Origin: an uncultured Holophagae bacterium
GTDB taxonomy: Bacteria > Acidobacteriota > Thermoanaerobaculia > Thermoanaerobaculales > Sulfomarinibacteraceae
Reading direction: 5' to 3'
DNA: 64,000 nucleotides
NCBI GenBank assembly: GCA_963797055.1
Contig: CAWCOD010000006.1
Location: 573,642 to 637,641 of the forward strand
Shown: piece by piece, positions 2,557-63,407 of the stretch
Numbering within the stretch: position 1 is the first letter of the stretch
Layout of the letters: every line of letters begins with the position of its first letter
The notes under the pieces: model-generated
What the model saw: only the letters and a program-made list of their open reading frames with translations
Told to the model about the DNA's origin: nothing
Databases searched by the model: none
Translations under genes and position numbers: made by a program

Positions 2557-5343
2557 ATGAACCTCATTGAAAAAGGCATTGATGCCGTCTTTGGCTCAAA
2601 GCACGAGCGAGACATAAAACGCATGCGGCCCATGATTCGGGAGATCAACGATCTCGAACCGGAGATGGAGGCCCTGGACGACGATCGGCTGCGCGGGCGA
2701 ATCGACGAGATTCGAGAGCGCGTACGGGCGTCGTTGACCGACCTGCCAGACGAGGCACGCGCCCGGAGCGTGATGGTCCAAGAGGTTTTGGATCGGGAGT
2801 TGGTAGAGGTCTATGCAATCGTCCGTGAGGCGTCGAAAAGGGTGACGGGGATGCGCCACTTCGACGTCCAACTGGTCGGAGGCATCGTGCTCCATGAAGG
2901 CCGGATCGCGGAGATGAAGACCGGTGAGGGCAAGACCCTTGTGGCGACCCTCGCTGTGGCACTCAACGCGCTCAGCGGTCGAGGGGTTCACGTCGTTACC
3001 GTCAACGATTACCTGGCGCAGCGTGACGCGGACTGGATGGGGAAAATCTACCGGTTTCTCGGCTTTTCTGTCGGCTGTATCCAGAATCAAATGAAGGATG
3101 ACGAGCGCAAGGCTGCCTACGGAGCCGATATCACCTACGGTACGAATAACGAGTTCGGCTTCGACTACTTGCGGGACAACATGAAGTTCTCCCTCGATCG
3201 GATGGTCCAAAGGGACCATGCCTACGCCATCGTCGACGAGGTGGATTCGATTCTAGTGGATGAGGCCAGAACGCCGCTTATCATCTCCGGCCCATCTGAG
3301 GTGTCCGTCGATCTCTATTACAAGGTCGACGGTGTGATTCCGAAACTCGGTCGTGGCGAGGAAATCGAGGACAAACACGGCAACAAGGAGGTCACCGGCG
3401 ACTATCTGGTGGATGAGAAGGCCCAGACAGCGACCCTCACCGAGCAGGGGATGCAGCGGGTCGAGAAGATCCTCGGTGTTGAAAACCTCTGGGATCCGTC
3501 GCAGACCGAAATTCTCCACGCTGTGAATCAGGGGCTGCGCGCCCACTCACTGTTTGAGCGGGACCGCGAGTACATCGTCAAGGACGGCGAGGTGATCATC
3601 GTTGACGAGTTCACCGGAAGGTTGATGTCGGGCCGGCGCTGGTCCGACGGTCTGCACCAGGCTGTGGAGGCCAAAGAAAAGGTCAAGATCCAGTCGGAGA
3701 ACCAGACGCTGGCAACGGTCACCCTGCAGAACTACTTCCGGATGTACGACAAGCTGGCGGGGATGACCGGTACCGCTGAGACCGAGGCCGAAGAATTTCA
3801 GAAGATCTACGGGCTGGATGTCGCCGTGATCCCGACCAACGTCAATATGGTCCGGGACGATGCGGCCGATGTGGTCTACAAAACCGAAAAGGAGAAGTTC
3901 CGGGCGGTGATCGACGAGATCCAACGGAGCCATGAGCGGGGCCAGCCGGTCCTGGTGGGTACGGTCTCGATCGAAAAGTCGGAGCGGCTGGACAAGTTGC
4001 TGCAGCGTCGCAAGATCAAGCACGTTGTGCTGAACGCCAAATACCACGAGCGGGAGGCCGACATCGTCGCCCAGGCCGGTCGGAAGGGAGCGGTGACCAT
4101 CGCCACCAACATGGCGGGCCGAGGCACAGACATCGTGCTGGGTGGCAATCCGGAAGGTTTGGCGAGGATGGAGGCCGATCCCGGCGCGGATCCGGAGGGC
4201 TATGAGAGGGCGTTGGTCAAGTACACCGAATTGTGTGTTACTGAAAAGGAGGAGGTGCTCGCCGCCGGCGGCCTCCAGATCATCGGCACCGAACGTCACG
4301 AGGCCCGCCGGATCGACAACCAGTTGCGCGGTCGATCGGGCCGGCAGGGGGACCCCGGTGCGTCCCGTTTCTTCCTGTCTTTAGAAGATGACCTGATGCG
4401 GATTTTTGCGGCCGATTGGGTGCGCAAGATGATGGATCGGCTTGGGATGGAAGAGGACGTGCCCATCGAGTCGAAGATGGTGTCCAAGTCCATCGCCCGA
4501 GCGCAGACGCAGGTTGAAGGACGGAACTTCGATATCCGCAAGCACCTGCTCGAGTACGACGACGTCATGAACAAACAGCGTGAGGCCGTCTATCGTCTCC
4601 GCCGGCAGATTCTCGAAGGGGTGGAGGGCCGCGACTACATCATCCGGGTGGTTGATGAAATCGTTGCCAGCATGATCGACCGATTCTGTCCCGAGGACGC
4701 CGATCCGGAGGACTGGGACACCGCCGCCATGGACATCGAATACCGATCCTATTTCGGGATCACGGTGGAGCAGGTGGGGGTGGACTGGCAGAAGGTCAAC
4801 CGGGTGGAGCTCGAGGAACAGTTGGTGGACGGGGCCAAGCGCCACTATCACGAACGGGTGGAGCGCTTTGGTGACGACGAGTTTAAAAAGCTCGAGAAAT
4901 TCCTCCTCCTCGACACGGTGGATCGCCAATGGAAAGACCACCTTCTGGCTCTGGACCATCTGAGAGAGGGCATCGGTCTGCGCGCGTACGGCCAACGCAA
5001 CCCCCTGGTGGAGTACAAACGCGAGTCTTACGCCCTGTTCGAGGATATGTGGGAGCGGATCGAGGACCACGTGGTGAAGTTCCTCTACCACGCCGAACCG
5101 GTGGAGGACTATCAGCAGCGCCGGCGCGGTGTCACGACCACTCTGTCTCACCCGGACGCCGCCGGGCTCGCCAAATCCCATGAGCAGCAGGAGAGGGCGG
5201 CGAGCACACCGGTCGGTGGGCCGACGAAACCCTCCACGGTTCGCCGGATGCAACCCAAGGTGGGACGAAACGACCCGTGTCCCTGCGGATCGGGCAAGAA
5301 GTACAAAAAGTGCTGCGGGGTGGACTCCGCGGCGGGGAGGTAA
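2557..5343 (+). CDS. secA: Preprotein translocase ATPase SecA
   Basis: 928 aa. Motor motifs [13 protein letters not shown] and [20 protein letters not shown]-terminal zinc finger [14 protein letters not shown]. Confidence 0.98.
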
Positions 5344-5348
5344 GAGGG

Positions 5349-6818
<1,470 letters not shown>

Positions 6819-6822
6819 CACC

Positions 6823-6914
6823 AGGGAGCAGGAAGCAGTTGGCAGGGGCCAATCTCGCGACCTCCGCTCCCTGCTCTCTGCTCCCTGCACCCTGTTCCCC
6901 GCTCCCTGCACCCT
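6823..6914. repeat. Inverted heptamer arrays: AGGGAGC/AGGAAGC (6823-6836), spacer, then 7 in-register units GCTCCCT/GCTCTCT/GCACCCT/GTTCCCC (6866-6914)
   Basis: Read directly. Fills the guaB-gmd spacer. Confidence 0.9.
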
Positions 6915-6932
6915 GTCTGGTAGACTCCGCCA

Positions 6933-11831: not shown

Positions 11832-12046
11832 ACTTTTGACTGTAGACTTTAGCCCGAACTTCTCACCGGGTATCTACTGCGGGCGGCGAATCGCGTCGTT
11901 CCGTCGTGTTTGTCGCAAATCGTGTTCCTCAACATAGTGCGACTATGCCTACGTCGCCCAATTACACGACAAACCCAGCGGAGACTTGCGTTTCGCCACC
12001 CTCGCGACGAAACCCGGTGAGAAGTACGGGCTAGACTGGTGAGATA

Positions 12047-12553
12047 GTGGAAGCTCCAGAGACATTTCCCATTCTGGCGGTATTTGGTGGCGGTGATGCG
12101 ACGCCCGAAGAGAGGGCTATTGCTGAGCGGGTCGGATGCCTGGCTGCCGAGCATGGATGGGTGGTGCTGACCGGGGGTGGCCCGGGCGTCATGGAAGCAG
12201 CCGCTCGCGGCGCGGTGGAAGCCGGAGGTCTCACGGTGGGAGTCCTGCCCACGGCCGCACCGTCGGGACCGTATCCGAATCGGTGGATCAGAATTCCGAT
12301 CTTCACCGGTTCCGGGATGGCGAGAAACGCGTTCAACGTGTTGTCGGCAACTTTGTGTGTGGCTATCGGGGGTGGTGCCGGGACCCTGTCCGAGGTGGCC
12401 ATGGCGCTCAAGGCCGGCATTCCCGTTTGGTGCTGCGCAAGCTGGCAATTGACATCTCCGAACGACAGGGCCCCAATGCCGCGTTTCTTCGATGATGAGG
12501 AGCTACTGCTGTCGGCGCTGGGGGAGTTTCTCCGAGAAAATCCTGCACACTGA
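12047..12553 (+). CDS. TIGR00725/LOG-like (SLOG superfamily) Rossmann protein
   Basis: ILAVFGGG...VVLTGGGPGVMEAAARGA...GVLP pattern. GTG start; there is no in-frame ATG near the N-terminus. Confidence 0.7.
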   Translation: MEAPETFPILAVFGGGDATPEERAIAERVGCLAAEHGWVVLTGGGPGVMEAAARGAVEAGGLTVGVLPTAAPSGPYPNRWIRIPIFTGSGMARNAFNVLSATLCVAIGGGAGTLSEVAMALKAGIPVWCCASWQLTSPNDRAPMPRFFDDEELLLSALGEFLRENPAH

Positions 12554-16884: not shown

Positions 16885-17059
16885 AACAGGGGACAGGGGA
16901 CAGGGAGCGGGCCCCGCCCGCCCGGATGCAAGATGCAAGATGCAGGATCCCCCGCCCACCCGAGCCCGATCCCGAGCCCGAGCCCGTTACCGTTACCGTT
17001 ACCGAACGAAGAACCAAGCACGAAGAACGAAGAACGAAGAACGAAACCACCCACCCACC
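16885..17059. repeat. Composite array: 11 heptamers (ACAGGG-, TGCAAGA-type plus C-tract boxes), 7 hexamers (GAGCCC x4, GTTACC x3), 8 heptamers (GAACGAA-type, ACCCACC)
   Basis: Register counted base by base: 16885-16961, 16962-17003, 17004-17059. Confidence 0.9.
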
Positions 17060-17217
17060 CGGGTCGTGAAAGGGCACGATGGGTGGGCGTGAAGCTCTGA
17101 TGATTTTGGAAGAGCATTATCAGCGGTGGGGGTCCTTCGTTGCACCCCGGTTCTTCGTCGCGCTTCTCGTGAGGATGCCAGGCACCGACATGGAGATCGG
17201 AATGCGAGGGTGGAAAT

Positions 17218-19156: not shown

Positions 19157-20257
19157 TCAGGACCGCCGGTAGAGGAAGGCGCAGTCCTGGAGGACTGGCT
19201 CGGTGCCGGACCGGCCGACCGCATAGCGGCCACCCGACCACAACGAAGCCCCTCCGGTTTCGCCTTTCCCGTTGACCGCATAGAACTTGACGTCAAACGT
19301 CGGTCGTCCGTGGTCGTCCAGAAGGTACGAGACCTTGGTGGCGCGGACGAGGCGCTCCAACGCGCCGAGGCAGGCATCGGTGGGCGAGGACCCGTTGCGC
19401 ATGAACTCGATAACGGTGTGGGCGCCCGCGATCTGGATCACCGACTCGCCGCGCCCGGTGGAACCGGCGGCGCCGACCCCGTCTTCGACGAAGAGGCCGG
19501 CTCCGATCAGCGGGGAGTCGCCGACACGCCCGGGAATCTTGAAGAACAGGCCCGACGTGGTGGTTGTGCCGCCCAGATCACCGGCTGAGTTGACTGCACA
19601 GAGATTGATGGTCCCGGTGGGTCGGACCGCTCCGAACTTCTCGATGAACCAGGCCACGTCAGGGTCGTCAACCTGCCCCGGAGCCGGAATCCAATCGTCG
19701 GCGTCGGACATGTTCGCCTTCCAGTAGAGCCAGATCTTGCGGGCGCGCTCGGTCAGGAGGTCTTCCTCTTCGAAACCTATGGTGCTGGCGAACCGGGCGG
19801 CACCCTCACCGACCAACAGCACTCTGGTGGTGCGGCGCATCACCTCGAGTGCGACTCGGGCCGGGTGCCGGAACCCCTCGAGCGCCGCCACCGCGCCGGC
19901 GCGCATGGTGGTTCCGTCCATGCAACAGGCGTCCAATTGGACGACCCCTTCCGAATTTGGCAGACCGCCGAAGCCGACGGTGACGTCCTTCGGGTCTGCC
20001 TCGACGATGCCCACACCAGCCACCGCCGCTTCCACCGGTGGCAGCCCGGCATCCATATCGTGAACGGCGCGTCGCACGGCCTCGAGACCGTTTGCCGAGG
20101 CCACCGCAACGGCGGGGGTCCGGATGGTCTGATCCTGGGCTCGGAGTTGAGAACCGGTGGCGAGTCCTGCGAGCGCGGCGGTTCCGGCGGCAACCACCTC
20201 ACGGCGGGTGGGACCCGATGCAACGGATGGTCCTGCGGAGGGCTTTTCGTATGACAT
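19157..20257 (-). CDS. Ntn-hydrolase of the asparaginase-2 family (isoaspartyl peptidase / glycosylasparaginase-like) with Tat-type signal
   Basis: TRREVVAAGTAALAGLA signal. The autoprocessing region ...GGTTTTSGLFFKIPGRVGDSPLIGAG... is typical of the family. Confidence 0.85.
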   Translation of the reverse strand: MSYEKPSAGPSVASGPTRREVVAAGTAALAGLATGSQLRAQDQTIRTPAVAVASANGLEAVRRAVHDMDAGLPPVEAAVAGVGIVEADPKDVTVGFGGLPNSEGVVQLDACCMDGTTMRAGAVAALEGFRHPARVALEVMRRTTRVLLVGEGAARFASTIGFEEEDLLTERARKIWLYWKANMSDADDWIPAPGQVDDPDVAWFIEKFGAVRPTGTINLCAVNSAGDLGGTTTTSGLFFKIPGRVGDSPLIGAGLFVEDGVGAAGSTGRGESVIQIAGAHTVIEFMRNGSSPTDACLGALERLVRATKVSYLLDDHGRPTFDVKFYAVNGKGETGGASLWSGGRYAVGRSGTEPVLQDCAFLYRRS

Positions 20258-20466
20258 GCGTCATGGTGGGCGTTCACGGTGAGTCGTGTCAAGGTTCCTT
20301 GGGGGTTTGGGAACAGGGTTTGCATTGTTATTCCGGACCAATCGAACAGGTTGGTGGAACGGCGGCCATGGTCTACCATGAAGATAGAGCGAAATTCCGG
20401 GTTTCGCAGTGCGTCGATGGTGCCGGGGGCCGGTGCCGGAAAGGGACGCCGAGGTCTGGAAGATGG

Positions 20467-21231
20467 ATGTCGGAGCGCAACATGAGACGCGACGAAGGCT
20501 ACTTGCTTGGAGCGGGTTTGACAGTATGTCTGGTGATGCTCATGACCGCCTGTAGCGCTCCCGGGGGTCACTCGAGCGAGGTTCAGGGGAGGGACTGGGA
20601 ATCGAGACGGGCCGAAATGGTACGCGCCCAGATCGAGGCCAGAGGCGTCAAGGATTCCGACGTTCTGGACAGCATGCGGGCCGTCCCGAGACATCTTTTC
20701 GTGCCCGATGTCTATCGCGATGCGGCCTACAACGATTCCCCCCTACCCATCGGACAGGGGCAGACCATATCTCAGCCCTACATCGTGGCCTTGATGACCG
20801 AGCTCCTTGAGGTGGGCGACGGCAGCAGGGTGCTCGAGATCGGGACCGGCTCCGGGTATCAGGCGGCGGTGCTGGCGGAGATGGGAGTCGAGGTCTACTC
20901 CATTGAGATCAAGACGAAACTCTGCGAGAGCGCGGCGGCGACGCTCGAGGGTCTCGGTTACGAGACGGCCCACGTTCGCTGCGGTGACGGATATGGCGGT
21001 TGGCCCGAGAACGCGCCCTTTGACGGGATCATTGTGACGGCTGCACCGGATCGCATTCCTGACCCGCTCCTCGACCAGCTTGCCGACGGTGCGCGTATGG
21101 TGATCCCGGTGGGAGAGTTCTATCAGGAACTCAAGGTGATCACCCGCAACGGAGACGCCTTCCAGGAGCGGTCGGTGATACCGGTGCGCTTTGTTCCCAT
21201 GACCGGTGAGATCGAGCGCCAGCGAAACTGA
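20467..21231 (+). CDS. pcm: Protein-L-isoaspartate O-methyltransferase with N-terminal lipoprotein-like signal
   Basis: GQTISQPYIVALM and VLEIGTGSGYQAAVLA SAM motifs. N-terminal hydrophobic stretch ending LMTAC. Alternative ATG at 20482. Confidence 0.9.
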   Translation: MSERNMRRDEGYLLGAGLTVCLVMLMTACSAPGGHSSEVQGRDWESRRAEMVRAQIEARGVKDSDVLDSMRAVPRHLFVPDVYRDAAYNDSPLPIGQGQTISQPYIVALMTELLEVGDGSRVLEIGTGSGYQAAVLAEMGVEVYSIEIKTKLCESAAATLEGLGYETAHVRCGDGYGGWPENAPFDGIIVTAAPDRIPDPLLDQLADGARMVIPVGEFYQELKVITRNGDAFQERSVIPVRFVPMTGEIERQRN

Positions 21232-32064: not shown

Positions 32065-32243
32065 GAATCCTCCCGTGTCGGTCGTCGGCGATTGTAACCC
32101 TGATCTGCAAAATCATGAAATAGTGATACTTGCAGTGTTGAAGAGCTGAGAAAACGTTGTCGAGGAAAGCTGAGACGACGCTGAATCTGGGCTATCATCA
32201 ACATCGTTGGGAGGCGTACGTGGCGGACCATGCTCTGAAGGTG

Positions 32244-33719
32244 ATGATGGTGACCTCGGAGGTCGTTCCCTTTGCCAAGGCGGGTGGGCTGGCCGACATG
32301 GTGGGAGCCCTGTCCAAGGCAGTGACCGATCTCGGCCACGATGTACGAATCGTATTGCCGCGATATTACTCGGTGGACATCGGCCGGCTCAGGAGAATCG
32401 GTTCGCCGCTCGGCATACCGCTGGGGGACCGCGAGGAGTGGTGCGCAGTTTACGAAGGCCGGATTCCGGGAACCGAGGTCCCGGTCTACTTTTTCGACCA
32501 CGAGGAACTGTTTGGCAGAGACGGAATCTATGGCACTCGCATCGAACCGAGCTTCCAGGACAACCTACGGCGTTTCGCCGTGCTCTGCCGGGGCGCCCTG
32601 CAGCTGGCGCTGGCCATCGACTGGCGGCCGGACATCGTGCACGCTCACGACTGGCCGGGCGCGCTGGCACCGGTCTATCTCAACACCGTGGAGAGGGAGG
32701 GCCCCTTTGCTGCGACGGGCAGCGTATTGACCATTCACAACCTCGGCTATCAGGGGATCTTCCCAAAGGAGGAGTATCCGACGACTGGTCTGGAGTGGGA
32801 TCTTTTCCACGGCGCCGGGTTCGAATTCTTTGATGATGTCAATCTCCTGCAGGCTGGTATTCGTAACGCCGATCTTCTGACCACCGTGTCCCCAACCTAC
32901 GCGGAAGAGATCCAGACGCCGGCCTACGGCCACCGATTGGACGATCTTCTGAGGTTCCGGTCCGACGACCTCTTCGGGGTGCTCAATGGGATGGACTACG
33001 AGGAATGGAACCCCGAGACCGACGACTTGATCGCCGCCACCTACTCCAGTCGGGGCTACAAGGGCAAAGCCAAGAACAAGGCGGCGTTGCAGCGTGAATT
33101 CGACCTCGATGTGGACCCCGAAATTCCAGTCTACGGCATGGTCAGTCGGATGGTGGCGCAGAAGGGATTCGGCCAGCTGTGTGGTCCCGCCCATGGGAGC
33201 TTGGCTTCAATGTGCGCGCAGCTCGACCTCCAATTCGCCATCATCGGAACCGGCGACGCCTGGTGTGAGGAGGAGTTGGCGGCCCTGGCCCAGCGCTATC
33301 CAAACCTCGGTGTCCGGATCGAGTTCAACAACCGGCTGGCTCACCTGGTGGAGGCCGGCTCTGATTTTTTCCTCATGCCCAGCCTGTACGAGCCGTGCGG
33401 TCTGACCCAGATGTATGCGCTGCGTTATGGGTCCCTCCCGATCGTGCGCCAGACCGGTGGCTTGGCGGACACCGTCGAGAACTACGACGAGAAGAGCGGG
33501 GAGGGAACCGGCTTCGTTTTCAAAGAGATCGACCCGTCAGCCATTTTCAACACGGTGGGTTGGTCGTTGTGGGCGTGGCACAATCGTCCCGACCACATCA
33601 CGGCCATGCGGAGACGGGCCATGAAGGTCAGATTCCTGTGGCAGGAATCGGCCCGTCGCTTTGTGGAGCTCTATCGGTCGGCCATCGAACGTCGTACAGG
33701 AGTCGTGCCCGAGAAGTGA
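32244..33719 (+). CDS. glgA: Glycogen synthase
   Basis: MMVTSEVVPFAKAGGLADMVGAL N-terminus and C-terminal PSLYEPCGLTQMYALRYG. GTG 32241 and ATG 32247 are alternative starts. Confidence 0.92.
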   Translation: MMVTSEVVPFAKAGGLADMVGALSKAVTDLGHDVRIVLPRYYSVDIGRLRRIGSPLGIPLGDREEWCAVYEGRIPGTEVPVYFFDHEELFGRDGIYGTRIEPSFQDNLRRFAVLCRGALQLALAIDWRPDIVHAHDWPGALAPVYLNTVEREGPFAATGSVLTIHNLGYQGIFPKEEYPTTGLEWDLFHGAGFEFFDDVNLLQAGIRNADLLTTVSPTYAEEIQTPAYGHRLDDLLRFRSDDLFGVLNGMDYEEWNPETDDLIAATYSSRGYKGKAKNKAALQREFDLDVDPEIPVYGMVSRMVAQKGFGQLCGPAHGSLASMCAQLDLQFAIIGTGDAWCEEELAALAQRYPNLGVRIEFNNRLAHLVEAGSDFFLMPSLYEPCGLTQMYALRYGSLPIVRQTGGLADTVENYDEKSGEGTGFVFKEIDPSAIFNTVGWSLWAWHNRPDHITAMRRRAMKVRFLWQESARRFVELYRSAIERRTGVVPEK

Positions 33720-33821
33720 AATTTTTAGTTCTCAAATATTGAATTTTGAATTTCCCCCTCCCGCCCAAGAGAGGCAGGAGTTGTCCGAAATTCAAAATTG
33801 AGAATTGAGAATTGAGAATTC
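33720..33821. repeat. Heptamer-armed hairpin element: 5 AT-rich heptamers (33720-33754), 32-nt GC core (33755-33786), 5 inverted heptamers (33787-33821)
   Basis: Arms AATTTTT/AGTTCTC/AAATATT/GAATTTT/GAATTTC versus GAAATTC/AAAATTG/AGAATTG x2/AGAATTC. The inner 13 nt are perfectly complementary. Confidence 0.9.
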
Positions 33822-34314
33822 AGCGCCCACGGTGTAGGGCGTCGAGTTCGTCCCTGAGCTCGGGGATGTCGAGGGATTGAGTGGTCATGATCCGCCAGCC
33901 CGAAGGCTCTTTGCGCCAGAGGATCGACGCTGTACAGGGGGTGGACCGGCTGCCCAGGATGGTCCCGGCCCCATCGCCGTCCCTGCCGGAGACCACGAAG
34001 CGGAGCCGGACCAGAACACCCTCCTCGGTTCGGTCTGCGGCGGTCTTTAAAAATTCAACGTCGAGATCATCGAAGGTGGCCATCATCTCGCTGATGTTGC
34101 CGGCGATGGACTCGTAACTCTGGCCCCAGGGGTCGCTGTACTCGCGGGAGACCACCTGTAGGGTGCCGAGGAGTTGTTCTGACTCGAATGCCTCGATCGC
34201 GGCGAGGAGCTTGCGTTGTACGACGCGTTCTGGCGAGAAGTACTGTCTGAACCAGAAGGTCAGTACCAGTGCGACTCCGACGATGACAATGACGACGAGA
34301 CGGTTGTTCTTCAT
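33820..34314 (-). CDS. Membrane-anchored NTF2/SnoaL-like protein
   Basis: N-terminal TM helix RLVVIVIVGVALVLTFWF. The ~140-aa alpha+beta domain assignment is weak. Confidence 0.5.
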   Translation of the reverse strand: MKNNRLVVIVIVGVALVLTFWFRQYFSPERVVQRKLLAAIEAFESEQLLGTLQVVSREYSDPWGQSYESIAGNISEMMATFDDLDVEFLKTAADRTEEGVLVRLRFVVSGRDGDGAGTILGSRSTPCTASILWRKEPSGWRIMTTQSLDIPELRDELDALHRGR

Positions 34315-35726: not shown

Positions 35727-36425
35727 ATGGCAGACACACATTTAGCATTCGTCCCCATGACGAAGGATAAGTCCAACGATATCTTCGTTTTTCCGAAATG
35801 GACGGGGATACTGCGTCCAGGAATCGCGGCTGCTGCCATCGGCGGGCTGGTGTACGCCACGATTGTCGTCTATTTCGGGTTCTCACCAAAGGCCACGGAC
35901 GTCGGCTACGCCCCGGAACAACCCGTGCCCTACAGCCACGCGCTGCACGTTGGTCAACTCGGCGTAGACTGTCGGTACTGCCATAACACTGTGGAGGTTG
36001 CGGCCCACGCGGCCATTCCTCCGACCCAGACCTGCATGAACTGCCACTCCATGATCCGCAAGAACTCAGAGAAGCTCACGCCGATTCTGGAAAGTTACGC
36101 CACCGGGATGCCGGTGGAGTGGATCAGGGTTCACGATCTTCCCGATTACGTCTATTTCAACCACTCGGCTCACGTGCGCCGCGGTGTCGGCTGCGTGGCG
36201 TGCCACGGACGAATCGACACCATGGAGGTGGTCTACCAGGCGGAGCCGCTGAGCATGGGATGGTGCCTGGAATGCCACCGCAATCCGGAGCGCCACCTTC
36301 GTCCCACAGAGTTCGTCACCCAACTGGATTGGGTACCGGAGGAGGACCAGATGGTGCTCGGGGCACGGCTTCGCGAGACCAACAACATCAACCCACCCGT
36401 GGACTGCAATACATGTCATCGCTGA
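35727..36425 (+). CDS. actA: Alternative Complex III subunit ActA (pentaheme cytochrome c)
   Basis: Five CxxCH motifs (CRYCH, CMNCH, CVACH, CLECH, CNTCH). N-terminal TM helix. Confidence 0.9.
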   Translation: MADTHLAFVPMTKDKSNDIFVFPKWTGILRPGIAAAAIGGLVYATIVVYFGFSPKATDVGYAPEQPVPYSHALHVGQLGVDCRYCHNTVEVAAHAAIPPTQTCMNCHSMIRKNSEKLTPILESYATGMPVEWIRVHDLPDYVYFNHSAHVRRGVGCVACHGRIDTMEVVYQAEPLSMGWCLECHRNPERHLRPTEFVTQLDWVPEEDQMVLGARLRETNNINPPVDCNTCHR

Positions 36426-39400
36426 AATCAAACGGCATGCAGTACTGGCGCAGCCTGGATGAGCTGACGCAGACCCCCGAGTTCGTGGAGGCGGTCCGCC
36501 GCGAATTTCCGGACGACGACTGGGATCAGCTGCCGCCGGCCACCCGTCGCCAGTTCCTCAAGGTCATGGGCGCGTCCTTGGCATTTGCCGGTCTCACCGG
36601 CTGTAGGTGGCCCAAGGAGGAGATCGTCCCCTTTGCCCACCGCCCGTCGGACCGTACCCCCGGAGTGCCCCAACAATTCGCCACCGCCATGGAACTCGCG
36701 GGCGTGGCCACCGGCATGCTTGTGACCTCATACGACGGTCGACCCATCAAGGCCGAGGGCAATCCCGAGCACCCGGACAGCCTGGGAGGTCTCGGGGCCA
36801 TCCACCAGGCCAGTGTCCTCGGGCTCTACGACCCGGACCGCAGCCGTCGGGTGGTTTTTCGGGACGGCGGTCAGGAGTTCGTCAAGACGTGGGACGACGT
36901 GGCGGGCTACGCTGCGCAGCACCTTGCCGGGACCGGGCAGGGGGTCGCGGTGCTCACCGGGACATCGTCCTCACCCAGCCTCGAACGTATGAAGGCCCGT
37001 TTCCTCGCCGCCCAACCGGAGGCCCGCTGGTACGAATACGAGCCGATCTCGGACGATCACGAACGGGAAGGTCTGCGGACCGCCTTCGGCCGGCCGCTGA
37101 GGGTCGTACCGAACCTCCGTCGTGCCCGGGTCGTGGCGTGTTTCGATGCCGACCCGTTGGGCGAACATCCCGCTGCGTTGCGATTGACCCGCCAATTCGC
37201 CCAATCGCGCGCGCCCCACGGCGACACCATGAGCCGACTTTGGGTGGCGGAGTCCGGTTTCTCCCTATCCGGCGGACGGGCGGACCATCGACTGGCCGTT
37301 CCATCCGGGCAGGTTGTGACGTTGCTCTCCGGATTGGTGACAGCCCTGGCGCGACATGACGGTGTCGGCCTGGGTGCGGACGTCGCTCCCGAGATCGCCG
37401 ATGTGGACTCCAACCACGGCGAATTTGTCGAAGCCCTCGCCGACGATCTGGCGAACCACCCGGGCGAGAGCCTGCTTCTGGTGGGACCGCGCCAGCCGGC
37501 CGCGGTGCACGCCATGGCGGCCATGGTCAACCAGGCGCTCGGGAACGTGGGGCGGACCCTGACCTACACCGAGGTCGCCGATCCCGATCGGGCGACCCAT
37601 GTGGATGCCATCTCCGAACTTTCTGCGCAGATGGCGTCCGGTGCGGTCCGGACTCTGCTGATCCTCGGCGGCAATCCGGCCTACGATGCGCCCATCGACT
37701 CGGGTTTTGCCGATCGGCTGTCTCAGGTGCCGCACACGATGCACCTGAGTCTTTATGACGACGAAACCTCCCGCCGCTGTGGCTGGCACCTGCCGCAGGC
37801 ACACTTTCTGGAGACGTGGGGCGACGGTAGGGCATGGGACGGAAGCTGGACACTCCAACAGCCGCTCATCGAGCCGCTGTACGGTGGTCGGTCGCCCATC
37901 GAGGTGCTTGCCATGCTGCTCGAGCCCGAGCCGGTTCGGGGCTACGAGATCGTCCGCCAGACGCTGGGGGAAAACTCGTCCGAGGTGGATTTTGAGGCGT
38001 TGTGGCGCCGCTCTCTCCACGACGGCCTGGTGCGCGGCACGGCCAAGGCAGCCGTCGAAGTTGCGCTGAATCCTGCAGCTGTCGGTGAAGTTGTTCGGGG
38101 CGTCCGCGTGCCGCCTGCGCCAACGTCGGGCAGCCTCGAACTGGTGCTGGTTCCGGATCCAAAGATTTTCGATGGCCGGTTCGCCAACAACGGGTGGTTG
38201 CAGGAGTTGCCGGAGGCAGTCACCAAGGTCGCGTGGGACAACGCGCTGTTATTGTCACCCCCCGCCGCCAGAGAGCTGGGTGTGGAGCAGAACGACGTGG
38301 TTGTGGTGGCGGCCGGCGACCGTTCGCTGGACGTGCCGGTGTGCGTGGTTCCGGGTCAAACTCGGTATTCGGCCAGCCTGTGGCTCGGGTACGGCCGTTC
38401 GGCGGCCGGTCAGGTGGGCAACGGCGTCGGGGCGAATGCCTATGGTCTGCGCGCCGACGACGGGTCCTTCGTTCTCGACGGTGTCACGGTGACCCCCGCA
38501 GGCCGGCAACATGTACTGGCCTGCACCCAGAACCACTTTGCCATCGACACGATCGGTTTTGGAGAACGGAACATCCGGGCCGACAACTTCGTACGCGAGG
38601 CGAGTCTCGACGCCTATCTCGCCGACCCCGAACTCTTCCAACACATGGACCACCATCCGCCGCTTAAGAATCTGTGGAAGGACCTGGCCTACGAGGGTGA
38701 GCAGTGGGGGATGGCCATCGATCTGAATTCCTGCACCGGATGCAACGCCTGTGTCGTCGCCTGTCAGGCGGAGAACAACATCCCGGTGGTGGGTCGCGAG
38801 CAGGTCATCAATCAGCGCGAGATGCAGTGGATCAGGGTCGACCGCTATTTCAAGACGCCGTTGGGTGTGGCTGCCGACGAAGTGGACACCGCCGAGATGG
38901 TCTTCCAACCCATGACGTGTGTTCAGTGCGAGAACGCGCCGTGCGAGCAGGTCTGTCCGGTGGCAGCCACCCAGCACACCCGGGACGGGCTCAACGCCAT
39001 GGCCTACAACCGATGCATCGGCACCCGTTACTGTTCCAACAACTGTCCGTTCAAGGTGCGGCGATTCAACTTCTTCAACTACCACAAAGAGCTGTCCGAC
39101 ATCTCGATGATGCAGTTCAACCCCGAGGTCACGGTTCGCAGCCGGGGTGTCATGGAGAAGTGCACCTTTTGCATCCAGCGGATCGAAGCGGTGCGAATTC
39201 AGGCCCGCAACGAAAAGCGACCCATCGGCGACGGAGAGATCGTTCCGGCCTGTGCGCAGACCTGTCCGGCCAAGGCCATCCATTTCGGCGATCTCAACAA
39301 TCCCTCGAGCGAGATCTCCAAACTCCGTCAGGACCATCGCGCGTACGTCACTCTGGAAGAACTGAACATCCGACCGCGGGCCCACTATATGGCTCGTCTG

Positions 39401-39475
39401 CAGAATCCGGTGGGAGGCGCCGTGGAAACGTCGGGCACCGCAGACCATGACGATCACGGGAAGGAGTCCGCTTGA
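36413..39475 (+). CDS. actB: ACIII subunit ActB (molybdopterin-oxidoreductase-like plus FeS domains, fused B1-B2)
   Basis: Tat motif [10 protein letters not shown]. Cys clusters [35 protein letters not shown] and CTFC. ATG 36413 overlaps the actA end. Confidence 0.92.
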
Positions 39476-39479
39476 GCCC

Positions 39480-40940
39480 ATGAGCACCTCCACCGTCGAC
39501 ACCCGTGTCATGCTGGACAACACCGCCGACGATCCCACTCGTCGGGCGCCGTTGGTCCTGAATCACAATGAGTTCGATTTCATCACCGACACCGTTTGCG
39601 GCGTGGTGGAACAGAAGACACCACGGGCCTGGTACATCGCCTTTGGCATCTCGCTGAGCATGACCGGTGTGCTCGCGGTGATGGTGGCCTACCTGGTCGG
39701 CGTGGGCATCGGAGTTTGGGGTCTGCAGGTCCCGGTGGCCTGGGGCTGGGCGATTGTCAACTTCGTCTTCTGGGTCGGCATCGGTCACGCGGGAACGCTG
39801 ATCTCCGCGATTCTGTTTCTTCTCCGCCAGAAGTGGCGGACGAGCATCAACCGGTTCGCCGAGGGCATGACGATCTTCGCGGTGGCCTGCGCCGGGATTT
39901 TCCCCGGCATCCATGTCGGCCGAATCTGGGTGGCCTACTGGCTGGCTCCCATCCCGAATCAGATGCAGATGTGGCCGAATTTCCGATCACCGCTGTTGTG
40001 GGACGTTTTCGCGGTGGGTACCTACGCCACCGTGTCGCTGCTGTTCTGGTATATGGGTATGATCCCCGATCTGGCCACCCTGCGCGACCGCGCCACCACC
40101 AAGGGTCGCTGGCTGGCCTACGGTCTGCTCAGCATGGGTTGGCGGTCCTCGAATCGGCACTGGCACCGATTCGAGATGGCCTACTTGCTTCTCGCCGCGC
40201 TGGCGACTCCGCTGGTGCTGTCGGTGCACTCGGTGGTGAGCTTCGACTTTGCGGTGTCCATCATCCCCGGGTGGCACACGACGATCTTCCCGCCCTACTT
40301 CGTGGCCGGTGCGATTTTCTCGGGCTTCGCCATGGTGGTGACGCTGGTGATTCCAACCAGACATTTCCTCCATCTCGAAGAGATCATCACCCTGCGTCAC
40401 CTGGAGAACATGTCCAAGATCATGTTGGCCACAGGCATGATGGTGGGGCTGGCCTACTCGACCGAGTTTTTCATGGCCTGGTACTCGGGAAACAGCTACG
40501 AGGCGTTCACTTTCATGAACCGCGCCTTTGGTCCCTATGCGTGGGCCTACTGGATCATGGTGACCTGCAACGTCTTGGTGCCTCAGGTTTTCTGGTTCAA
40601 GAAGGTGCGAACGAACCTGGTGGTGATGTGGATCGCATCGATCCTGATCAACGTCGGGATGTGGTTCGAGCGGTTCGTCATCGTCGTCAGTTCCCTCAGC
40701 CGAGATTTCCTGCCCACGAGCTGGGGGTACTACCGGCCATCCATCGTGGACATCCTCACCTTCGCGGGGAGCTTCGGACTGTTCTTTACCCTGTTCCTGC
40801 TGTTTGTGAGGTTCCTGCCCATTATTGGAATGGCCGAGGTCAAGGGTGTGATGCCGGCGGCGCTCCACGACGAGCCGGGACACGGTGACTATCACGGTGA
40901 CATCACCGAGCGCTCGGCGCGTCGCGGAGGTGACCGGTGA
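39480..40940 (+). CDS. actC: ACIII subunit ActC (NrfD/PsrC-like quinol-interacting membrane subunit)
   Basis: Polytopic membrane protein. ATG lies 5 nt after the actB stop. Operon position fits. Confidence 0.88.
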
Positions 40941-41497
40941 CCTACGAACGACCCAACACCGACGCCACCGGCGATCTCTACGGTTATCTGGTGTCATTCG
41001 ATAACGTTGATCAGTTGCTCGCTGGAGCCGAAACGGTGCGGGACGCCGGCTACAAGGAGTGGGACACCCACACGCCATTCGTGGTCCACGGGTTGGACGC
41101 CGCAATGGGTGTTCCGCCGACGATTCTGCCGTACATCGTGTTTCTCGGCGGCCTCACCGGTATGATGTGCGGACTGCTGCTGCAGTGGTACACCAACGCC
41201 TTTGACTACCCGTTCCTCATCTCGGGCAAGCCCATATTCAGCCTACCGGCAAACATCCCGGTGGCCTTCGAGACCACGATTCTGTTCGCAGCCATCAGTG
41301 CCTTGGTGGGGATGCTCGCCCTCAATAATCTGCCCCAGCTCTACCACCCCCTGCACTCGAGCCGAATGTTCAAAAAAGTCACCGACAATCGTTTCATGAT
41401 CAGCATCGAGGCGCGCGATCCACTCTTTGATCGCACAACCACGCGACAACTGCTGGAGGGCCTCGGTGGGTCAGAGGTCGAGGAGGTGGTGGGGTGA
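40937..41497 (+). CDS. actD: ACIII subunit ActD (DUF3341-like)
   Basis: [25 protein letters not shown]... plus C-terminal TM helices. GTGA start/stop overlap with actC. Confidence 0.85.
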
Positions 41498-42141
41498 AAA
41501 TGCCACGCTGGCTCTTCTATGCGGTGGTGGTGATCATCGTCCTGTCGTGGGTGCCGCTGGCGGTGATCCTGCGGGCCCGCAACACCATGTCCTCGAAACC
41601 GAGGATCCACATCATCCAGGACATGGACAATCAGCCGAAGTTCAAGACCCAGGCGCGGAATCGGCTGTTCGCCGACCGGCGCGCCATGCGGGGGGTGGTG
41701 CCAGGGACCGTGGCCCGCGGCGAGCTGGACGCCGATTCCGCATACTACTTCGGCAAGGTGGGGGAGGACTGGGTCGAGACCCTGCCGGTTCCGGTGACCA
41801 TGCAGCTCATGGAGCGCGGACGGCAGCGTTTCGAGGTCTTCTGCGCCCCGTGCCATGGTCTGGCAGGCGCCGGTGACGGCATGGTGGCGAAACGAGCCGA
41901 AGAGCTTCAGGAGGGGACCTGGACGCCTCCCGCGTCGTTCCATTCCGAACTGGTTCGCGGACGCACCGACGGCCATCTGTTCAACACGATCACGAACGGA
42001 ATCAGGAATATGCCCGCCTATGCGCCGCAGATCCCGGTCGAGGACCGCTGGGCCATCGTGGCCTACGTCCGGGCCCTGCAGCGGAGCCAGGGTGCCCCGC
42101 TCGAGGACGTGCCGGCCGACCTCAGGGCGCAGTTGAGGTGA
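41494..42141 (+). CDS. actE: ACIII subunit ActE (monoheme cytochrome c)
   Basis: Single CAPCH motif and an N-terminal TM helix. Start overlaps the actD stop. Confidence 0.85.
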   Translation: MKMPRWLFYAVVVIIVLSWVPLAVILRARNTMSSKPRIHIIQDMDNQPKFKTQARNRLFADRRAMRGVVPGTVARGELDADSAYYFGKVGEDWVETLPVPVTMQLMERGRQRFEVFCAPCHGLAGAGDGMVAKRAEELQEGTWTPPASFHSELVRGRTDGHLFNTITNGIRNMPAYAPQIPVEDRWAIVAYVRALQRSQGAPLEDVPADLRAQLR

Positions 42142-43352
42142 TGATGAAGAAGGCAGTGGACATCACGGACATCGAGCTGCGCATTGATCCGGTGCTGCCC
42201 CTGTGGCTCGGCGGCGCGGCTGTGGCGGCGGTGGTGGGAATCGGCGGTGCCCTGGCGCTGGCCATGACCACCGAACACGGATGGGACCGACTGTTGGAGA
42301 CGTATCTCATCAGCTACTCGCTGTATCTCGCGCTCACCCTCGGAGCCCTGTTTTTCGTCATGCTGCAGCACGTGACCCGGGCGGGATGGTCGGTGGTGGT
42401 CCGCCGCATCGCGGAGGCGATGGCCACCAATGTCTGGCTGATGGCCATCCTGGTGACACCGATCGTTCTCGGCATGCACCATCTGTACCATTGGTCCCAC
42501 CTCGAGGAGGCGGCCCACGACCCCATTCTCGCCGCCAAGATGGGTTTCCTCAATCCAACGTTCTTTGTGGTGCGGTTGGCGGTCTACTTCGCGATATGGG
42601 GCGTGCTCGCGTGGTATTTCTACCGGACCTCGGTGCGGCAGGATGTCACCGGAGACCCAGCCCTGACGATTAAAATGGAGCGGGTGTCCGCCTTTGGTCT
42701 GATCCTCTTTGCCCTGTCCGCGAACTTCGCGGCCTTCGACCTGCTGATGTCACTGGATCCCCATTGGTTCAGCACGATCTTCGGGGTCTATTTCTTCGCG
42801 GTCAGCGTGGTTGTGTTTTACGCTGTGATGCCTAAAACCCTGGTGGCCCTGCAATCCAAGGGTGTACTCGACGGGGCGGTGACAGTGGAGCATTACCACG
42901 ACCTCGGGAAGTTCCTCTTCGCCTTTACGGTCTTTTGGGCCTACATCGCCTTTTCCCAGTACATGTTGATCTGGTACGGCAACATCCCCGAGGAGACCGA
43001 GTGGTACCTCAAACGGCAGACCGGCGATTGGGCGTGGGTGAGTCTGGCCCTGATCATCGGCCACTTCGTGATTCCATTTCTGATGCTGATTTCGAGGTAC
43101 GTGAAACGCCGTCCGGTGCTTCTCGCAGGGGTCGGTATCTATATGGTGCTCATGACCTGGTTGGATATCTACTGGCTGGTGATGCCTGAATTCAGCCCCG
43201 GGGTGGCCCGCTTCGGCCTGATCGACATCCTGTGTTTTCTGGGCCTGACCGGTGTGTACTCGAGTGTGCTCGCGTTCACGCTCCGGCGGCATTCGTTGAT
43301 ACCCGTGGGTGATCCCAGGTTGCACGAGTCGTTGGTCTTCAAGAACTCCTAA
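42138..43352 (+). CDS. actF: ACIII subunit ActF (second NrfD-like membrane subunit)
   Basis: Polytopic membrane protein. Start overlaps the actE stop. Operon position fits. Confidence 0.85.
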   Translation: MMMKKAVDITDIELRIDPVLPLWLGGAAVAAVVGIGGALALAMTTEHGWDRLLETYLISYSLYLALTLGALFFVMLQHVTRAGWSVVVRRIAEAMATNVWLMAILVTPIVLGMHHLYHWSHLEEAAHDPILAAKMGFLNPTFFVVRLAVYFAIWGVLAWYFYRTSVRQDVTGDPALTIKMERVSAFGLILFALSANFAAFDLLMSLDPHWFSTIFGVYFFAVSVVVFYAVMPKTLVALQSKGVLDGAVTVEHYHDLGKFLFAFTVFWAYIAFSQYMLIWYGNIPEETEWYLKRQTGDWAWVSLALIIGHFVIPFLMLISRYVKRRPVLLAGVGIYMVLMTWLDIYWLVMPEFSPGVARFGLIDILCFLGLTGVYSSVLAFTLRRHSLIPVGDPRLHESLVFKNS

Positions 43353-43356
43353 TGGT

Positions 43357-43464
43357 GATTTTGAATGTTGAATTTTGAATTCTCGATTTCCACGTGCGTG
43401 CGCAACGGAGCATTGGGGTGGTTGACCGTCATTCAAAATTCAAAACTGAGAATTGAGAATTCGA
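43357..43464. repeat. Heptamer-armed hairpin element: 5 heptamers (43357-43391), 38-nt core, 5 heptamers (43430-43464)
   Basis: Arms built from GATTTTG/AATGTTG/AATTTTG/AATTCTC versus CATTCAA/AATTCAA/AACTGAG/AATTGAG/AATTCGA. Confidence 0.9.
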
Positions 43465-43471
43465 GGAAACT

Positions 43472-43753
43472 ATGAGATACGACGATCCCGATGTCCCTGC
43501 GTCCGCGATCGTAGGCATTCTCGGAGCGATTCTGCTGTTTGCGATCATCGTCGGATTACAGGGTCTGTTCTACTCCATGGAGCGCAAGGAACTGGCGCAG
43601 AAGATCGCCGACAATCCGTACGAACCGCTCAAACGCCTCGATGCGGATCAGCTCGAAATTCTCAATAGCTACGGTTGGGTCGACCAGCAGGCGCAGACCG
43701 TCCACATTCCCATTCGTCGCGCCATGGAACTCGTCGTCACTGAATCGCAATAA
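43472..43753 (+). CDS. Small single-TM protein (93 aa) downstream of actF; possible accessory ACIII subunit
   Basis: GAGG lies 5 nt upstream of the ATG. TM helix ASAIVGILGAILLFAIIVGLQGLF. No family recognised. Confidence 0.55.
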   Translation: MRYDDPDVPASAIVGILGAILLFAIIVGLQGLFYSMERKELAQKIADNPYEPLKRLDADQLEILNSYGWVDQQAQTVHIPIRRAMELVVTESQ

Positions 43754-43857
43754 TTCTCAATTCTCAGTTCTAAATTTTGAATGAACCCCTGCCCGCCCAA
43801 CATGAACCGGGTGGGTGGTGGGAATTTAGAATTGAGACTTCAAAATTGAGACTTCAC
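43752..43857. repeat. Heptamer-armed hairpin element: 5 heptamers (43752-43786), 36-nt core CCCTGCCCGCCCAACATGAACCGGGTGGGTGGTGGG, 5 heptamers (43823-43857)
   Basis: Read directly. The arms contain the stop codons of both convergent genes (43751-43753 and 43854-43856). Confidence 0.9.
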
Positions 43858-45068
43858 TCATAGCGAAGGGCGTCGATGGGATCGAGCGCCGACGCCTTGG
43901 CGGCCGGGTAGGTCCCGAAGAAAATGCCGACCAGGGCGGCGAATCCGAACCCGATGCCCACGGCCCAGAGCGGAACGTGGGCCGGAGGAAAGCCTGGGAT
44001 GGCCTTGGCTCCCAGTACGCCCAACCCCCATCCGGCCAACACGCCCACCAGACCGCCCAGCAGGGAAAGCGTGACGGCCTCGATCAGGAACTGCACCAGG
44101 ATGTCGGATTTGCGCGCGCCCACGGCCTTGCGGACGCCGATCTCGCGGGTTCGTTCTGTGACCGAAACCAGCATGATGTTCATGATGCCGATACCGCCCA
44201 CCAACAGTGCGATGCTGACCACGCCGCCGACCACGCTGGTCAGCGTACCGAGAATAGCGCCGGTGGTCTCGAGGATCTCTTCCTGAAGGACAACCCTGAA
44301 GTCGTTGCTTTTGCCGTCAGCGATCCGGTGGCGCGATCGGAGCACCTCGGTGATCTGGTCCCTGGCCAGCTCCACCTGCTCCGGGCTGTAGGCCTGGAAG
44401 TCGAGAAAAAGCCTTTTGAAGGCGTCGTGGCCGTAGAGGTCTCGGGCGGTGGTGATGGGGATCAGGACGAGATCGTCCGAATTCTGGCCGAACATCTCGC
44501 CCATCTCCTCCATGATGCCAACCACAGTGAAGCTCCCCTGACCGATGATGATCTCCGTGCCGACGGGCTCGTCGCCGATCTCCAGCTCGCGGACGATCTC
44601 GGTCCCGAGAATGCACACCGGCGCCCGGCGGTCGAGATCGAGGTCCGAGAAGAAACGACCTTGGTCCACCCAGTGGATGTTGACCTCCTGGTGGGATGCG
44701 CCCACCCCGAGCAGCGTGGTGGAGTGCTGGCGGTCTCGGTAGCGGACGCGTTCGCCGCGGAAGAAGAGGGGATTGAAATACTCGATGGCGGTGGCTCGAT
44801 CCATGATGGCGAGCCCGTCGTCATAGGTCAGGACCACCTCCTTGCCGGCCAGATCGGGATCGTTGAGGTCCTGCCGGGGCTGGACCCGGATGTAGGTGGC
44901 GCCCACGCTTGCCAGGCGATTCTCGATGACGTAGTTGAGACCCTGGACGATGGAAACCACGGCGATCACCGCCGCGACACCGATGATGATCCCCAGAGTT
45001 GTCAGGAGAGACCGCATCTTGTTACCGCGGATCGCCTGCAGCGCGATGCGGAAGTTGTCCCAGATCAT
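43854..45068 (-). CDS. ABC transporter permease, MacB/FtsX family
   Basis: N-terminal TM helix, large periplasmic domain and C-terminal FtsX-like 3-TM bundle ([13 protein letters not shown]). Confidence 0.9.
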
Positions 45069-52656: not shown

Positions 52657-52730
52657 CATGTCGGTGCCAGGCGCCGCCGCAGTATGTCGAACTCGCACTA
52701 CGACTCGATTTCGACGGTGCCTGGCACCGG
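52657..52730 (-). repeat. 74-nt MITE-like element with palindromic 13-mer ends (GGTGCCAGGCGCC 52663-52675; GGTGCCTGGCACC 52716-52728)
   Basis: Reverse complement is collinear with 57637-57710. Confidence 0.85.
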
Positions 52731-54746: not shown

Positions 54747-54818
54747 CCGGTGCCAGGCACCGTCGAAATCGCATCGGAGCACGAGATATGTACGTTGGCG
54801 GAGGTGCCTGGCACCGCC
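54747..54818 (+). repeat. MITE-like element copy (GGTGCCAGGCACC 54749-54761; GGTGCCTGGCACC 54803-54815)
   Basis: Collinear with 57637-57710 (CCGGTGCCAGGCACCGTCGAAA...). Confidence 0.85.
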
Positions 54819-57636: not shown

Positions 57637-57710
57637 CCGGTGCCAGGCACCGTCGAAACCGATTCGTTGTACGAGGTCGACATACTGCGGCGGTGCCTGG
57701 CACCGACATG
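57637..57710 (+). repeat. MITE-like element copy (GGTGCCAGGCACC 57639-57651; GGTGCCTGGCACC 57692-57704)
   Basis: CCGGTGCCAGGCACCGTCGAAACCG...GTCGACATACTGCGGCGGTGCCTGGCACCGACATG. Confidence 0.85.
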
Positions 57711-62754: not shown

Positions 62755-62894
62755 AACCCGCCCCGAGTCCCGAGCCCCGATTCTCTCCCTCCCGTCCGTG
62801 ACCGCACAAAATCTCAATTCTCAGTTTTGAGTTTTGAATTGCCCTTCGACGTGCACATCTCCCGACCGCGCTCCCCGAGGGCGCGTATCTCGGA

Positions 62895-62970
62895 GGTGCC
62901 TGGCATCCCGATTCGCCAACGCCGGCCGTCCGATTCATCACGCTGGGGCGAATCGGCGTGCCTGGCATCC
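62895..62970. repeat. Direct GTGCCTGGCATCC repeats flanking a CCGATTCGCC...GGCGAATCGG hairpin
   Basis: Read directly. CGTGCCTGGCATCCTCACGGGAAGCGCGACGA... continues as the reverse complement of 17125-17190. Confidence 0.8.
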
Positions 62971-63204: not shown

Positions 63205-63318
63205 CCCTTAGACATTGTTGGGACCTCACGGGTTGAACTTGCCAGCACCTTGGTTCCCAACAATGTCAAAGACGGCACGCCCGCCATACGCGCCCACCTC
63301 GCTCCGGGTGGGCGGGAG

Positions 63319-63367
63319 GAATCTGCAATGTGCAATCTGGAATTCGCAGTTCGAAATGGGTGGGTGG
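63319..63367. repeat. 7 heptamers (GAATCTG, CAATGTG, CAATCTG, GAATTCG, CAGTTCG, AAATGGG, TGGGTGG) between G-tract boxes
   Basis: Read directly. Confidence 0.85.
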
Positions 63368-63407
63368 GAGGCCCTGAACTCTGAGCTCTGACAACGGTAT
63401 CGATAAC

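Follow-up and report, generated by a model that had tools for sequence, protein, structure and literature searches.

The window, by which we mean the whole 64,000-nt stretch of DNA analysed here (GC ~62%), contains a palindromic element of tandem heptamers, hereafter element 1, in the gap between glgA and a convergent gene (Table 1). The preliminary description had placed five heptamers, a 32-nt core and five inverted heptamers at 33720-33821 and had reported the inner 13 nt of the arms to be perfectly complementary, and direct reading bears out both statements: the inner sequences AATTTTGAATTTC and GAAATTCAAAATT are exact complements. The gap is also filled from stop to stop as claimed, in that the first base of the element is the base directly 3' of the glgA TGA, which ends at 33719, and the stop codon of the convergent gene (33820-33822) lies in the right arm. 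The outer left arm is degenerate, since complementarity of the arms drops to 85% over 20 nt and to 70% over 27 nt. The right arm agrees with the consensus arm of the family described below and is identical to the right arm of L092. The core is composed of a C-block, CCCCTCCCGCCC, a loop and a decayed G-side, GGCAGGAG, and yields a predicted apical stem of 8-9 bp.

Table 1. Features of the window discussed in the text, in window coordinates.
Feature	Coordinates	Strand	Description
Palindromic heptamer pair, other type	6822-6915		CAGGGAG x4, core, GCTCCCT x7; directly after the guaB/IMPDH stop (5277-6818, +)
Unpaired cluster	16886-17060	+	ACAGGGG, GATGCAA, CCCGAG, CCGTTA and GAACGAA arrays; three C-blocks between
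glgA ORF	32157-33719	+	Glyco_transf_5, E 1.9e-78; TGA at 33717-33719
Element 1, left arm	33720-33754		Five degenerate AATT-phased heptamers (AATTCTC/AATTTTG type): AATTTTT AGTTCTC AAATATT GAATTTT GAATTTC; direct reading
Element 1, core	33755-33786		32 nt, CCCCTCCCGCCCAAGAGAGGCAGGAGTTGTCC; direct reading
Element 1, right arm	33787-33821		GAAATTC AAAATTG AGAATTG AGAATTG AGAATTC; direct reading
Convergent ORF	33820-34314	-	Stop (TCA on +) at 33820-33822, within the right arm of element 1
Element 2	43357-43464		Between the 404-aa ACIII-operon gene (42138-43352, +) and the 93-aa gene (43472-43753, +)
Element 3	43752-43857		Between the 93-aa gene and the convergent MacB/FtsX permease gene (43854-45068, -)
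Second unpaired cluster	63300-63480	+	G-blocks alternating with AATCTGC, CTGAACT, CGGGCT and GCATCTT arrays

Two further copies of the same layout, elements 2 and 3, are present where the preliminary description had located them. Element 2, which likely lies inside an operon, has a decayed or lost C-block and a weak fold, and its orthologues in L159 and L158 retain the C-blocks CCCACCCACCC and CCCAACCACCC; its right arm stops just 5' of the GAGG Shine-Dalgarno sequence of the next gene. The TAA of the 93-aa gene (43751-43753) overlaps the first heptamer of element 3, the core of which reads CCCCTGCCCGCCC, a loop and GGGTGGGTGGTGGG. An alternative complex III (ACIII) gene cluster occupies 36119-43753 of the window, with genes for an Fe-S subunit, an NrfD-like protein, ActD, a cytochrome c, the 404-aa membrane protein and the 93-aa protein, and element 2 is situated between the last two of these.

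A dispersed family of ~105-nt extragenic palindromes in Thermoanaerobaculia/Holophagae-type Acidobacteriota includes element 1. In a set of ~30 elements drawn from independent contigs, the median arm length is 33-35 nt, or five AATT anchors, the core (median ~39 nt) is formed by (CCCN)3, a loop and (NGGG)3, the total is ~100-117 nt, and the modal layout is five heptamers, core and five heptamers. Each element is made up of two inverted modules, in which a ~33-nt heptamer array with AATT every 7 nt is joined to a (CCCN)3 block. The consensus is position specific; on the left it reads (AATTCTC)3 AATTTTG AATT followed by CCCRCCCRCCC and the loop, and on the right GGGYGGGYGGG followed by AATTCAA (AATTGAG)3 AATTC. 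A covariance model (A3, R1) trained on 17 elements, all of them from outside the window, recovered exactly three full-length elements in the window (E 1.5e-13 to 5.5e-10) and, besides these, only a weak 36-nt partial match at 62810-62845 (E 1.2). Against 449 kb of related and unrelated loci, the same model matched only the Acidobacteriota L010, L024, L158, L159 and L002. The earlier proposal of a structured ~105-nt family rather than one-off slippage is therefore upheld by the modal layout and by recovery of the three copies, and the further copies found by the scan that had been suggested favor a family decisively. No Rfam match was obtained in the window at the gathering score. Membership in an Rfam family was rejected for the element itself, on which a permissive threshold gave only spurious, sub-threshold matches to miRNA-precursor hairpins. 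Our literature search found no report on heptamer or REP-like repeats in Acidobacteriota.

Metagenome contigs were scanned with a query consisting only of the left arm AATTCTCAATTCTC followed by CCCNCCC, so that the right arm was not used in selection. Among the matches listed, an inverted right arm was present within 140 nt in 25 of the 65 on contigs with a GC fraction of at least 0.57, as compared to 1% of random regions and 1 of 50 low-GC contigs. Arm pairing is thus not incidental, given this excess over controls in a sample selected only for a left arm and a C-block. The arms consist of complementary unit types in every element examined, whatever the unit, as in AGTTCTT/AAGAACT of L002, GTTAGGA/TCCTAAC of L010 and CAGGGAG/GCTCCCT after guaB in the window. 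In some copies (L112, L010 8049-8150 and L099) the palindrome is perfect or nearly so, core included, and others are decayed; perfection that extends through the core, in L112 and at L010 8049-8150, suggests birth as an inverted duplication followed by decay.

The 25 palindromic elements lie between tandem genes in 14 cases, between convergent genes in 5 and between divergent genes in none. The stops of inward-pointing genes are mostly 0-15 nt from the arm ends, and gap filling from stop codon to stop codon characterises the family in general. As the ORF calls are bounded by in-frame stops within the arms, the distances measured to downstream start codons are not reliable. The first heptamer itself supplies the stop codon (TGAATTC or TAATTC) in 13 of 64 cases, with no enrichment over composition.

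Modules of the same kind were also seen on DNA of other composition. The low-GC contigs L038, L039, L061, L067, L127 and L148 carry AATTCTC arrays and CCCGCCCACCC, then TTTTAGT/TTTTACC arrays, and are never palindromic. Named homologues of L067 are from Bacteroidales (66-68% identity, with a low-complexity query protein); L067 appears to be a Bacteroidales contig, and therefore the module, though not the palindrome, probably crosses phyla. Six low-GC viral matches in IMG/VR (L162-L167) have AATTCTC arrays beside C-blocks, none of the six palindromic, and one of them, L167, holds tandem modules of an array plus GTCCGGCTCCCGCCC.

Relatives identified by glgA assign the window to Acidobacteriota; they are labelled Holophagae or Thermoanaerobaculales, the best being L024 at 86% identity, and the neighbours of ACIII agree. 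Heptamer arrays are present in L002, L007, L010 and L024 and absent from L001, L003-L005 and the spirochaete and Campylobacterota loci, barring one GTGGACA array in each of L014 and L015. At 89-92% amino-acid identity, L158 (on the same contig as L024) and L159 carry elements 2 and 3 at the same gaps, and L047 (68% amino-acid identity) has a well-formed element in the element-2 gap. L160/L002, at 76-79% identity, have palindromes at all three gaps, with units that have either drifted in both arms together (AGTTCTT/AAGAACT; GATTCTG/CAGAATC) or belong to another type (AACGTTT). No heptamers were found at the corresponding gaps of L161 and L001, and the L001 gap holds an ordinary 19-bp hairpin stem followed by TTTCTC in their place. 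Gaps are thus empty in L161 and L001 and occupied in L158, L159, L160 and L047, at a divergence too deep for insertions to be called. Unit type and copy number also vary among orthologous gaps.

At four-fold degenerate sites of the flanking genes, the window and these relatives have identities of 0.54-0.63, and the identity of the elements to their orthologues is 0.75-0.87 for element 3, 0.72-0.79 for element 2 and 0.61 for element 1. Conservation of elements 2 and 3 thus exceeds that of silent sites. In element 1, whose identity is at about the neutral level, only the architecture is kept.

Several arrangements in the relatives are recorded here as separate observations. At L160 4925-5296, in a relative of 79% identity, the element-3 gap is enlarged and contains a 23S_rRNA_IVP (four-helix-bundle) gene between AACGTTT-type arrays. 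Upstream of glgA, at L010 3520-3570 and L007 285-335, a conserved G-block, GGGCGGWTGGGCGGC, is followed by differing arrays (ATTCCTA in one, AAATTCG in the other) that lie ~40 nt 5' of a conserved region with TATCAT and a Shine-Dalgarno sequence; the block is conserved and the unit replaced. At L047 9386-9545 and 12047-12330, a conserved 24-nt GC block, ATCRGCGCGGGGAAACGATTCGTT, alternates with heptamer arrays that each measure exactly 32 nt (AGTTTTG, AATTCTC and CGGAATT types). A CRISPR identity for this alternation was ruled out, as the 'spacers' are all heptamer arrays.

The preliminary description had proposed folding both strands as a check, with a mixed outcome. Elements 1 and 3 fold far better than shuffles, with -40.7 kcal/mol on the + strand (z -7.6) and -36.3 on the - strand (z -5.8) for element 1, and -44.3 (z -6.2) and -34.6 (z -3.0) for element 3, and element 2 folds no better than shuffles (z -0.5/-2.0). 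Predicted folds over ~30 family members range from -22 to -80 kcal/mol. Within the AATTCTC family there is no covariation of the variable triplets of the arms, with a score of 0.62 for arms of the same element and 0.64 for unrelated arms, and RNAalifold found no compensatory pairs in the arms of element 3 (three orthologues) and two in the apical stem of element 2. A test of G-U versus A-C asymmetry, which was confounded by ascertainment because the search pattern fixed one arm, gave no consistent difference between sense and antisense stability (12 of 20, p 0.9). The arms are AT-rich, have no G3 tracts and cannot form G-quadruplexes. A G-quadruplex reading of the core was ruled out as well, the motif of four G3 tracts occurring in 3 of 54 core strands.

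The window as a whole follows a wider grammar. TRF identified 25 period-7 arrays of at least 2.5 copies in the 64 kb, as compared to 0.8 expected from first-order Markov simulations, and 20 in non-coding sequence, as compared to 0.08 expected; heptamer arrays are therefore present beyond chance. Nearly all are extragenic, typically just 3' of a stop codon, and only one of at least 2.5 copies (at 24315) is truly inside an ORF, though ~80% of the window is coding. For this placement ORF bounds were corrected by Pfam (guaB, 5277-6818; PCMT, 20038-21231). Unit types are diverse and include AATTGAG, AATTCGA, AATCTGC, AGCAGGG, GGGACTC, GAACGAA, GATGCAA and others. The motif CCCNCCCRCCC occurs 13 times versus 1.5 expected, each time adjoining an array, and on the G strand the G-block is 5' of the array in 15 cases versus ~3. 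The grammar is an array plus a C-block or, on the other strand, a G-block plus an array, and elements 1-3 are the paired form of this genome-wide grammar, in which many heptamer types take part. A further pair of another type and two unpaired clusters are given in Table 1, the second cluster being downstream of a gene at 63535-63972 (-). The grammar was missed in the preliminary description, and it shifts what needs explaining.

Array length is likewise constrained. Among period-7 arrays taken from outside the ascertainment in all GC-rich sources (the window and the loci), lengths peak at 32-35 nt, with 47 arrays there, 18-26 in the three neighbouring bins below and 8 in the adjacent bin above. 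Six unit types contribute to the peak, and an inverted partner is present in only 17 of the 47. Slippage alone predicts no such ruler. The units AATTCTC, AATTCCG, AAATCCG, AAATTCG and AACGTTT, among others, recur in the window, in L002, L007, L010 and L024 and on many metagenome contigs. The same 32-35 nt mode and the same vocabulary of units are seen in unpaired arrays, which have no orientation preference relative to genes, and more than hairpin formation therefore shapes the arms.

Other repeats occur in the window. A palindromic 13-mer, GGTGCCWGGCACC, is present 10 times (0.2 expected), most copies forming doublets spaced by ~53 nt with flanks that resemble one another (GGGCCGGTGCCAGGCACCGTCGAAA...), at 52663-52728, 54749-54815, 57639-57704 and 62895-62967, and also at 17174 and 22863; these repeats form a REP/REPIN-like family distinct from the heptamer elements. 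A 25-nt inverted repeat (11850-11874 and 12009-12033, 92% complementary) without an Rfam match encloses a second, 35-nt pair and lies just upstream of, and overlaps the start of, an ORF for a SLOG cluster4 (LDcluster4/DprA-like) protein at 12047-12553.

The reading that we prefer, while giving it slightly less than an even chance, is that the elements are REP/REPIN-like extragenic palindromes that form a 3' hairpin on transcripts arriving from either side. Such a function would be plausible and has precedent. The element would be part of the 3' untranslated region of each gene directed towards it, and therefore a transcript from either side would present the pyrimidine-rich arm and C-block first, followed by the G-block and the purine-rich arm. 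The arms would then fold back into an imperfect hairpin of ~45 bp that starts at the stop codon. At a 3' end or between cistrons, such a hairpin could block 3'-to-5' exonucleases and pause or attenuate RNA polymerase, and in this way may keep convergent genes insulated and determine how stable the upstream cistron is. This working is modelled on the presumed action of REP/BIME elements and STRR hairpins. The 3' hairpin is favored by family membership, the defined geometry, placement directly behind stop codons, persistence at orthologous gaps and strong predicted hairpins, and also by the ordinary long hairpin in the L001 gap, where heptamers are missing. Against it stand the lack of a U-tract, of arm covariation and of a sense-strand bias, the near-neutral identity of element 1, the poor fold of element 2, and the unpaired arrays with the same length mode and vocabulary. 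Should the hairpin mark transcript ends, annotating it would delimit 3' ends and the punctuation of operons in a lineage that is uncultured yet abundant in soil and sediment; otherwise, the family offers a clean system in which to study how such arrays arise.

Several alternatives to the 3' hairpin bear on the same observations. The elements may have no role in the cell and may be selfish or neutral replicative elements (REPIN- or MITE-like), or palindromes made by template switching, that survive in harmless gaps after stop codons; we regard this as unlikely, though a serious contender. Perfect palindromes beside decayed copies are the pattern expected from birth and subsequent decay, the position-specific consensus arm recurs across unrelated contigs, the arms do not covary within the family, the same gaps lack elements in L161 and L001, and REPIN doublets and singlets offer a close formal analogue (PMC3116915). 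The absence of all 25 copies from gaps between divergent genes would likewise fit purifying exclusion from promoters. Such replication is harder to reconcile with the retention of elements 2 and 3 at the same gaps at a conservation above that of four-fold sites, and with cores that differ between copies within one genome, the C-block excepted; furthermore, no target-site duplication was seen at the element ends, and a Pfam scan of 20 ORFs in the 64-kb window revealed neither a transposase nor a RAYT. Another possibility, and an improbable one in our judgement, is that an oligomeric protein binds the arms as periodic sites, on DNA or on RNA, and that the hairpin is secondary. On DNA the model would be a nucleoid or insulator protein, as BIMEs bind IHF and gyrase, and on RNA it would be HutP, which reads UAG triplets at a 7-nt period, or TRAP. 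Quantised lengths over six unit types with or without a partner arm, a loose YCN-AAWT pattern in which an AATT anchor recurs without variation every 7 nt, a unit vocabulary common to distant genomes and the fixed polarity of block to array would all suit binding, and the indifference of unpaired modules to gene orientation would suit a role at the DNA level. On the other hand, no candidate protein is at hand, the G-rich units AGCAGGG and GGGACTC fall outside the AAWT pattern, and the observations do not separate binding from structure.

The arrays could also be a mutational by-product of slippage, seeded beside G/C blocks that stall replication as G-quadruplexes or i-motifs and free of selection, but we consider this very unlikely. 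It would suit the adjoining of all 13 C/G blocks of the window to arrays and the variation in unit type and copy number at orthologous gaps, and heptamer slippage has been put forward as a general bacterial bias (Mrazek 2007, as cited in PMC4679880). It accords poorly with the rarity of canonical G4 motifs in the core strands, a length distribution that is peaked rather than decaying, a limited unit vocabulary common to several genomes, and complementary arm types far commoner than chance. The suggestion in the preliminary description of a bidirectional terminator fares no better: the setting of element 1 between convergent genes, its GC-rich apical stem and the AT-rich flanks on both sides invite it, but a canonical Rho-independent terminator is highly improbable. 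No U run follows the stem on either strand, a consensus scan placed no site on the element hairpins, and terminator-like sites were not enriched (12 in 12 kb versus 8.6 in shuffles), the only match touching an element being a 7-pair stem at 43868-43852 (-) that lies inside the end of the convergent gene with its tail running into the right arm of element 3. Moreover, the tandem setting of 14 of the 25 family members and the location of one element within the ACIII operon, which complete termination would harm, both weigh against it.

A broader reading would set the palindromes apart as the paired form of an undescribed system that builds or reads arrays. We consider this speculative and improbable; it is based on the several unit types, the 32-35 nt length (five AATT-type anchors), the fixed polarity to C/G blocks and the recurrence of modules of AATTCTC plus CCCGCCCACCC on contigs that appear to be from Bacteroidales. 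If it were true, a ruler common to different units would implicate a dedicated protein or a mechanism of copying, and not slippage, and such a system would offer a way into a problem that has stood for 35 years, the abundance of heptamer repeats in certain bacterial genomes.

Since 1990, when STRRs became known, heptamer repeats have to our knowledge gained no accepted function, although in many bacteria no other long simple repeats are as strongly over-represented. REP elements reportedly protect the 3' ends of mRNA and cause attenuation. REP, BIME and REPIN elements of Enterobacteria and Pseudomonas resemble the elements here in being extragenic inverted doublets of ~70-110 bp that form hairpins and are found after genes. 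REPINs are inverted REP doublets, extragenic and able to form hairpins in ssDNA or mRNA, with singlets coexisting (PMC3116915). An inverted doublet that can form a hairpin is thus found here as well; however, REPs are imperfect palindromes of 20-40 nt with a conserved head, whereas each half of the present elements is a heptamer array plus (CCCN)3 that is not itself palindromic and has no such head. REPINs are also tied to RAYT transposases, and none is present among the 20 ORFs scanned in the window.

The units of cyanobacterial STRRs are said to extend a helix of RNase P RNA. Like the arrays here, STRRs are heptamers with a small lineage-wide vocabulary in intergenic or intercistronic positions, some of them forming hairpins, and tandem 7-nt units above chance, a non-coding bias and a small common vocabulary are all found in the present genomes. 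STRR heptamer hairpins between hupS and hupL were suggested to stabilise the transcript or to couple translation (PMC2670836). Their unit sequences differ from those described here, and we found no description in the literature of an STRR with two arms of five heptamers and a (CCCN)3 core. The TAACTGA heptamer repeats of Beggiatoaceae, Cyanobacteria and Bacteroidetes (MacGregor 2015, PMC4679880) are, like the present arrays, intergenic, 2-6 units long and patchy across phyla. They are direct and lie just upstream of start codons, with one inverted case, whereas the elements here follow stop codons and are paired.

A close likeness is to the GGGAATC arrays of Xanthomonas, for which a mode of four units, ~40% convergent pairs near the preceding ORF and an unknown function were described (Rehm et al. 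2015, PMC4692102). As with the elements here, these are 7-nt tandem arrays, ~90% of them intergenic and most often of about four units; the convergent pairs place two arrays on opposite strands, where a stem-loop can form; the preceding ORF is the nearer one (mean 28 nt), and few arrays are found between divergent genes; and they vary in length and sequence between close species at the same gaps. Complementary convergent arrays near an ORF end are therefore common to both, and G3 tracts within the units are not: Xanthomonas units carry them and can form a G-quadruplex from four units, whereas the arms here are AT-rich (AATTCTC/AATTGAG) in a genome of 62% GC, with the G/C tracts in a separate central block that rarely has four. 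Many unit types also coexist here, and the host phylum is different. Set beside these systems, the present family is a case in which G-quadruplex formation cannot explain the mode of four to five units. It adds a defined element geometry that is kept across many genomes, and orthologous gaps that keep this architecture while the unit sequence drifts in both arms together.
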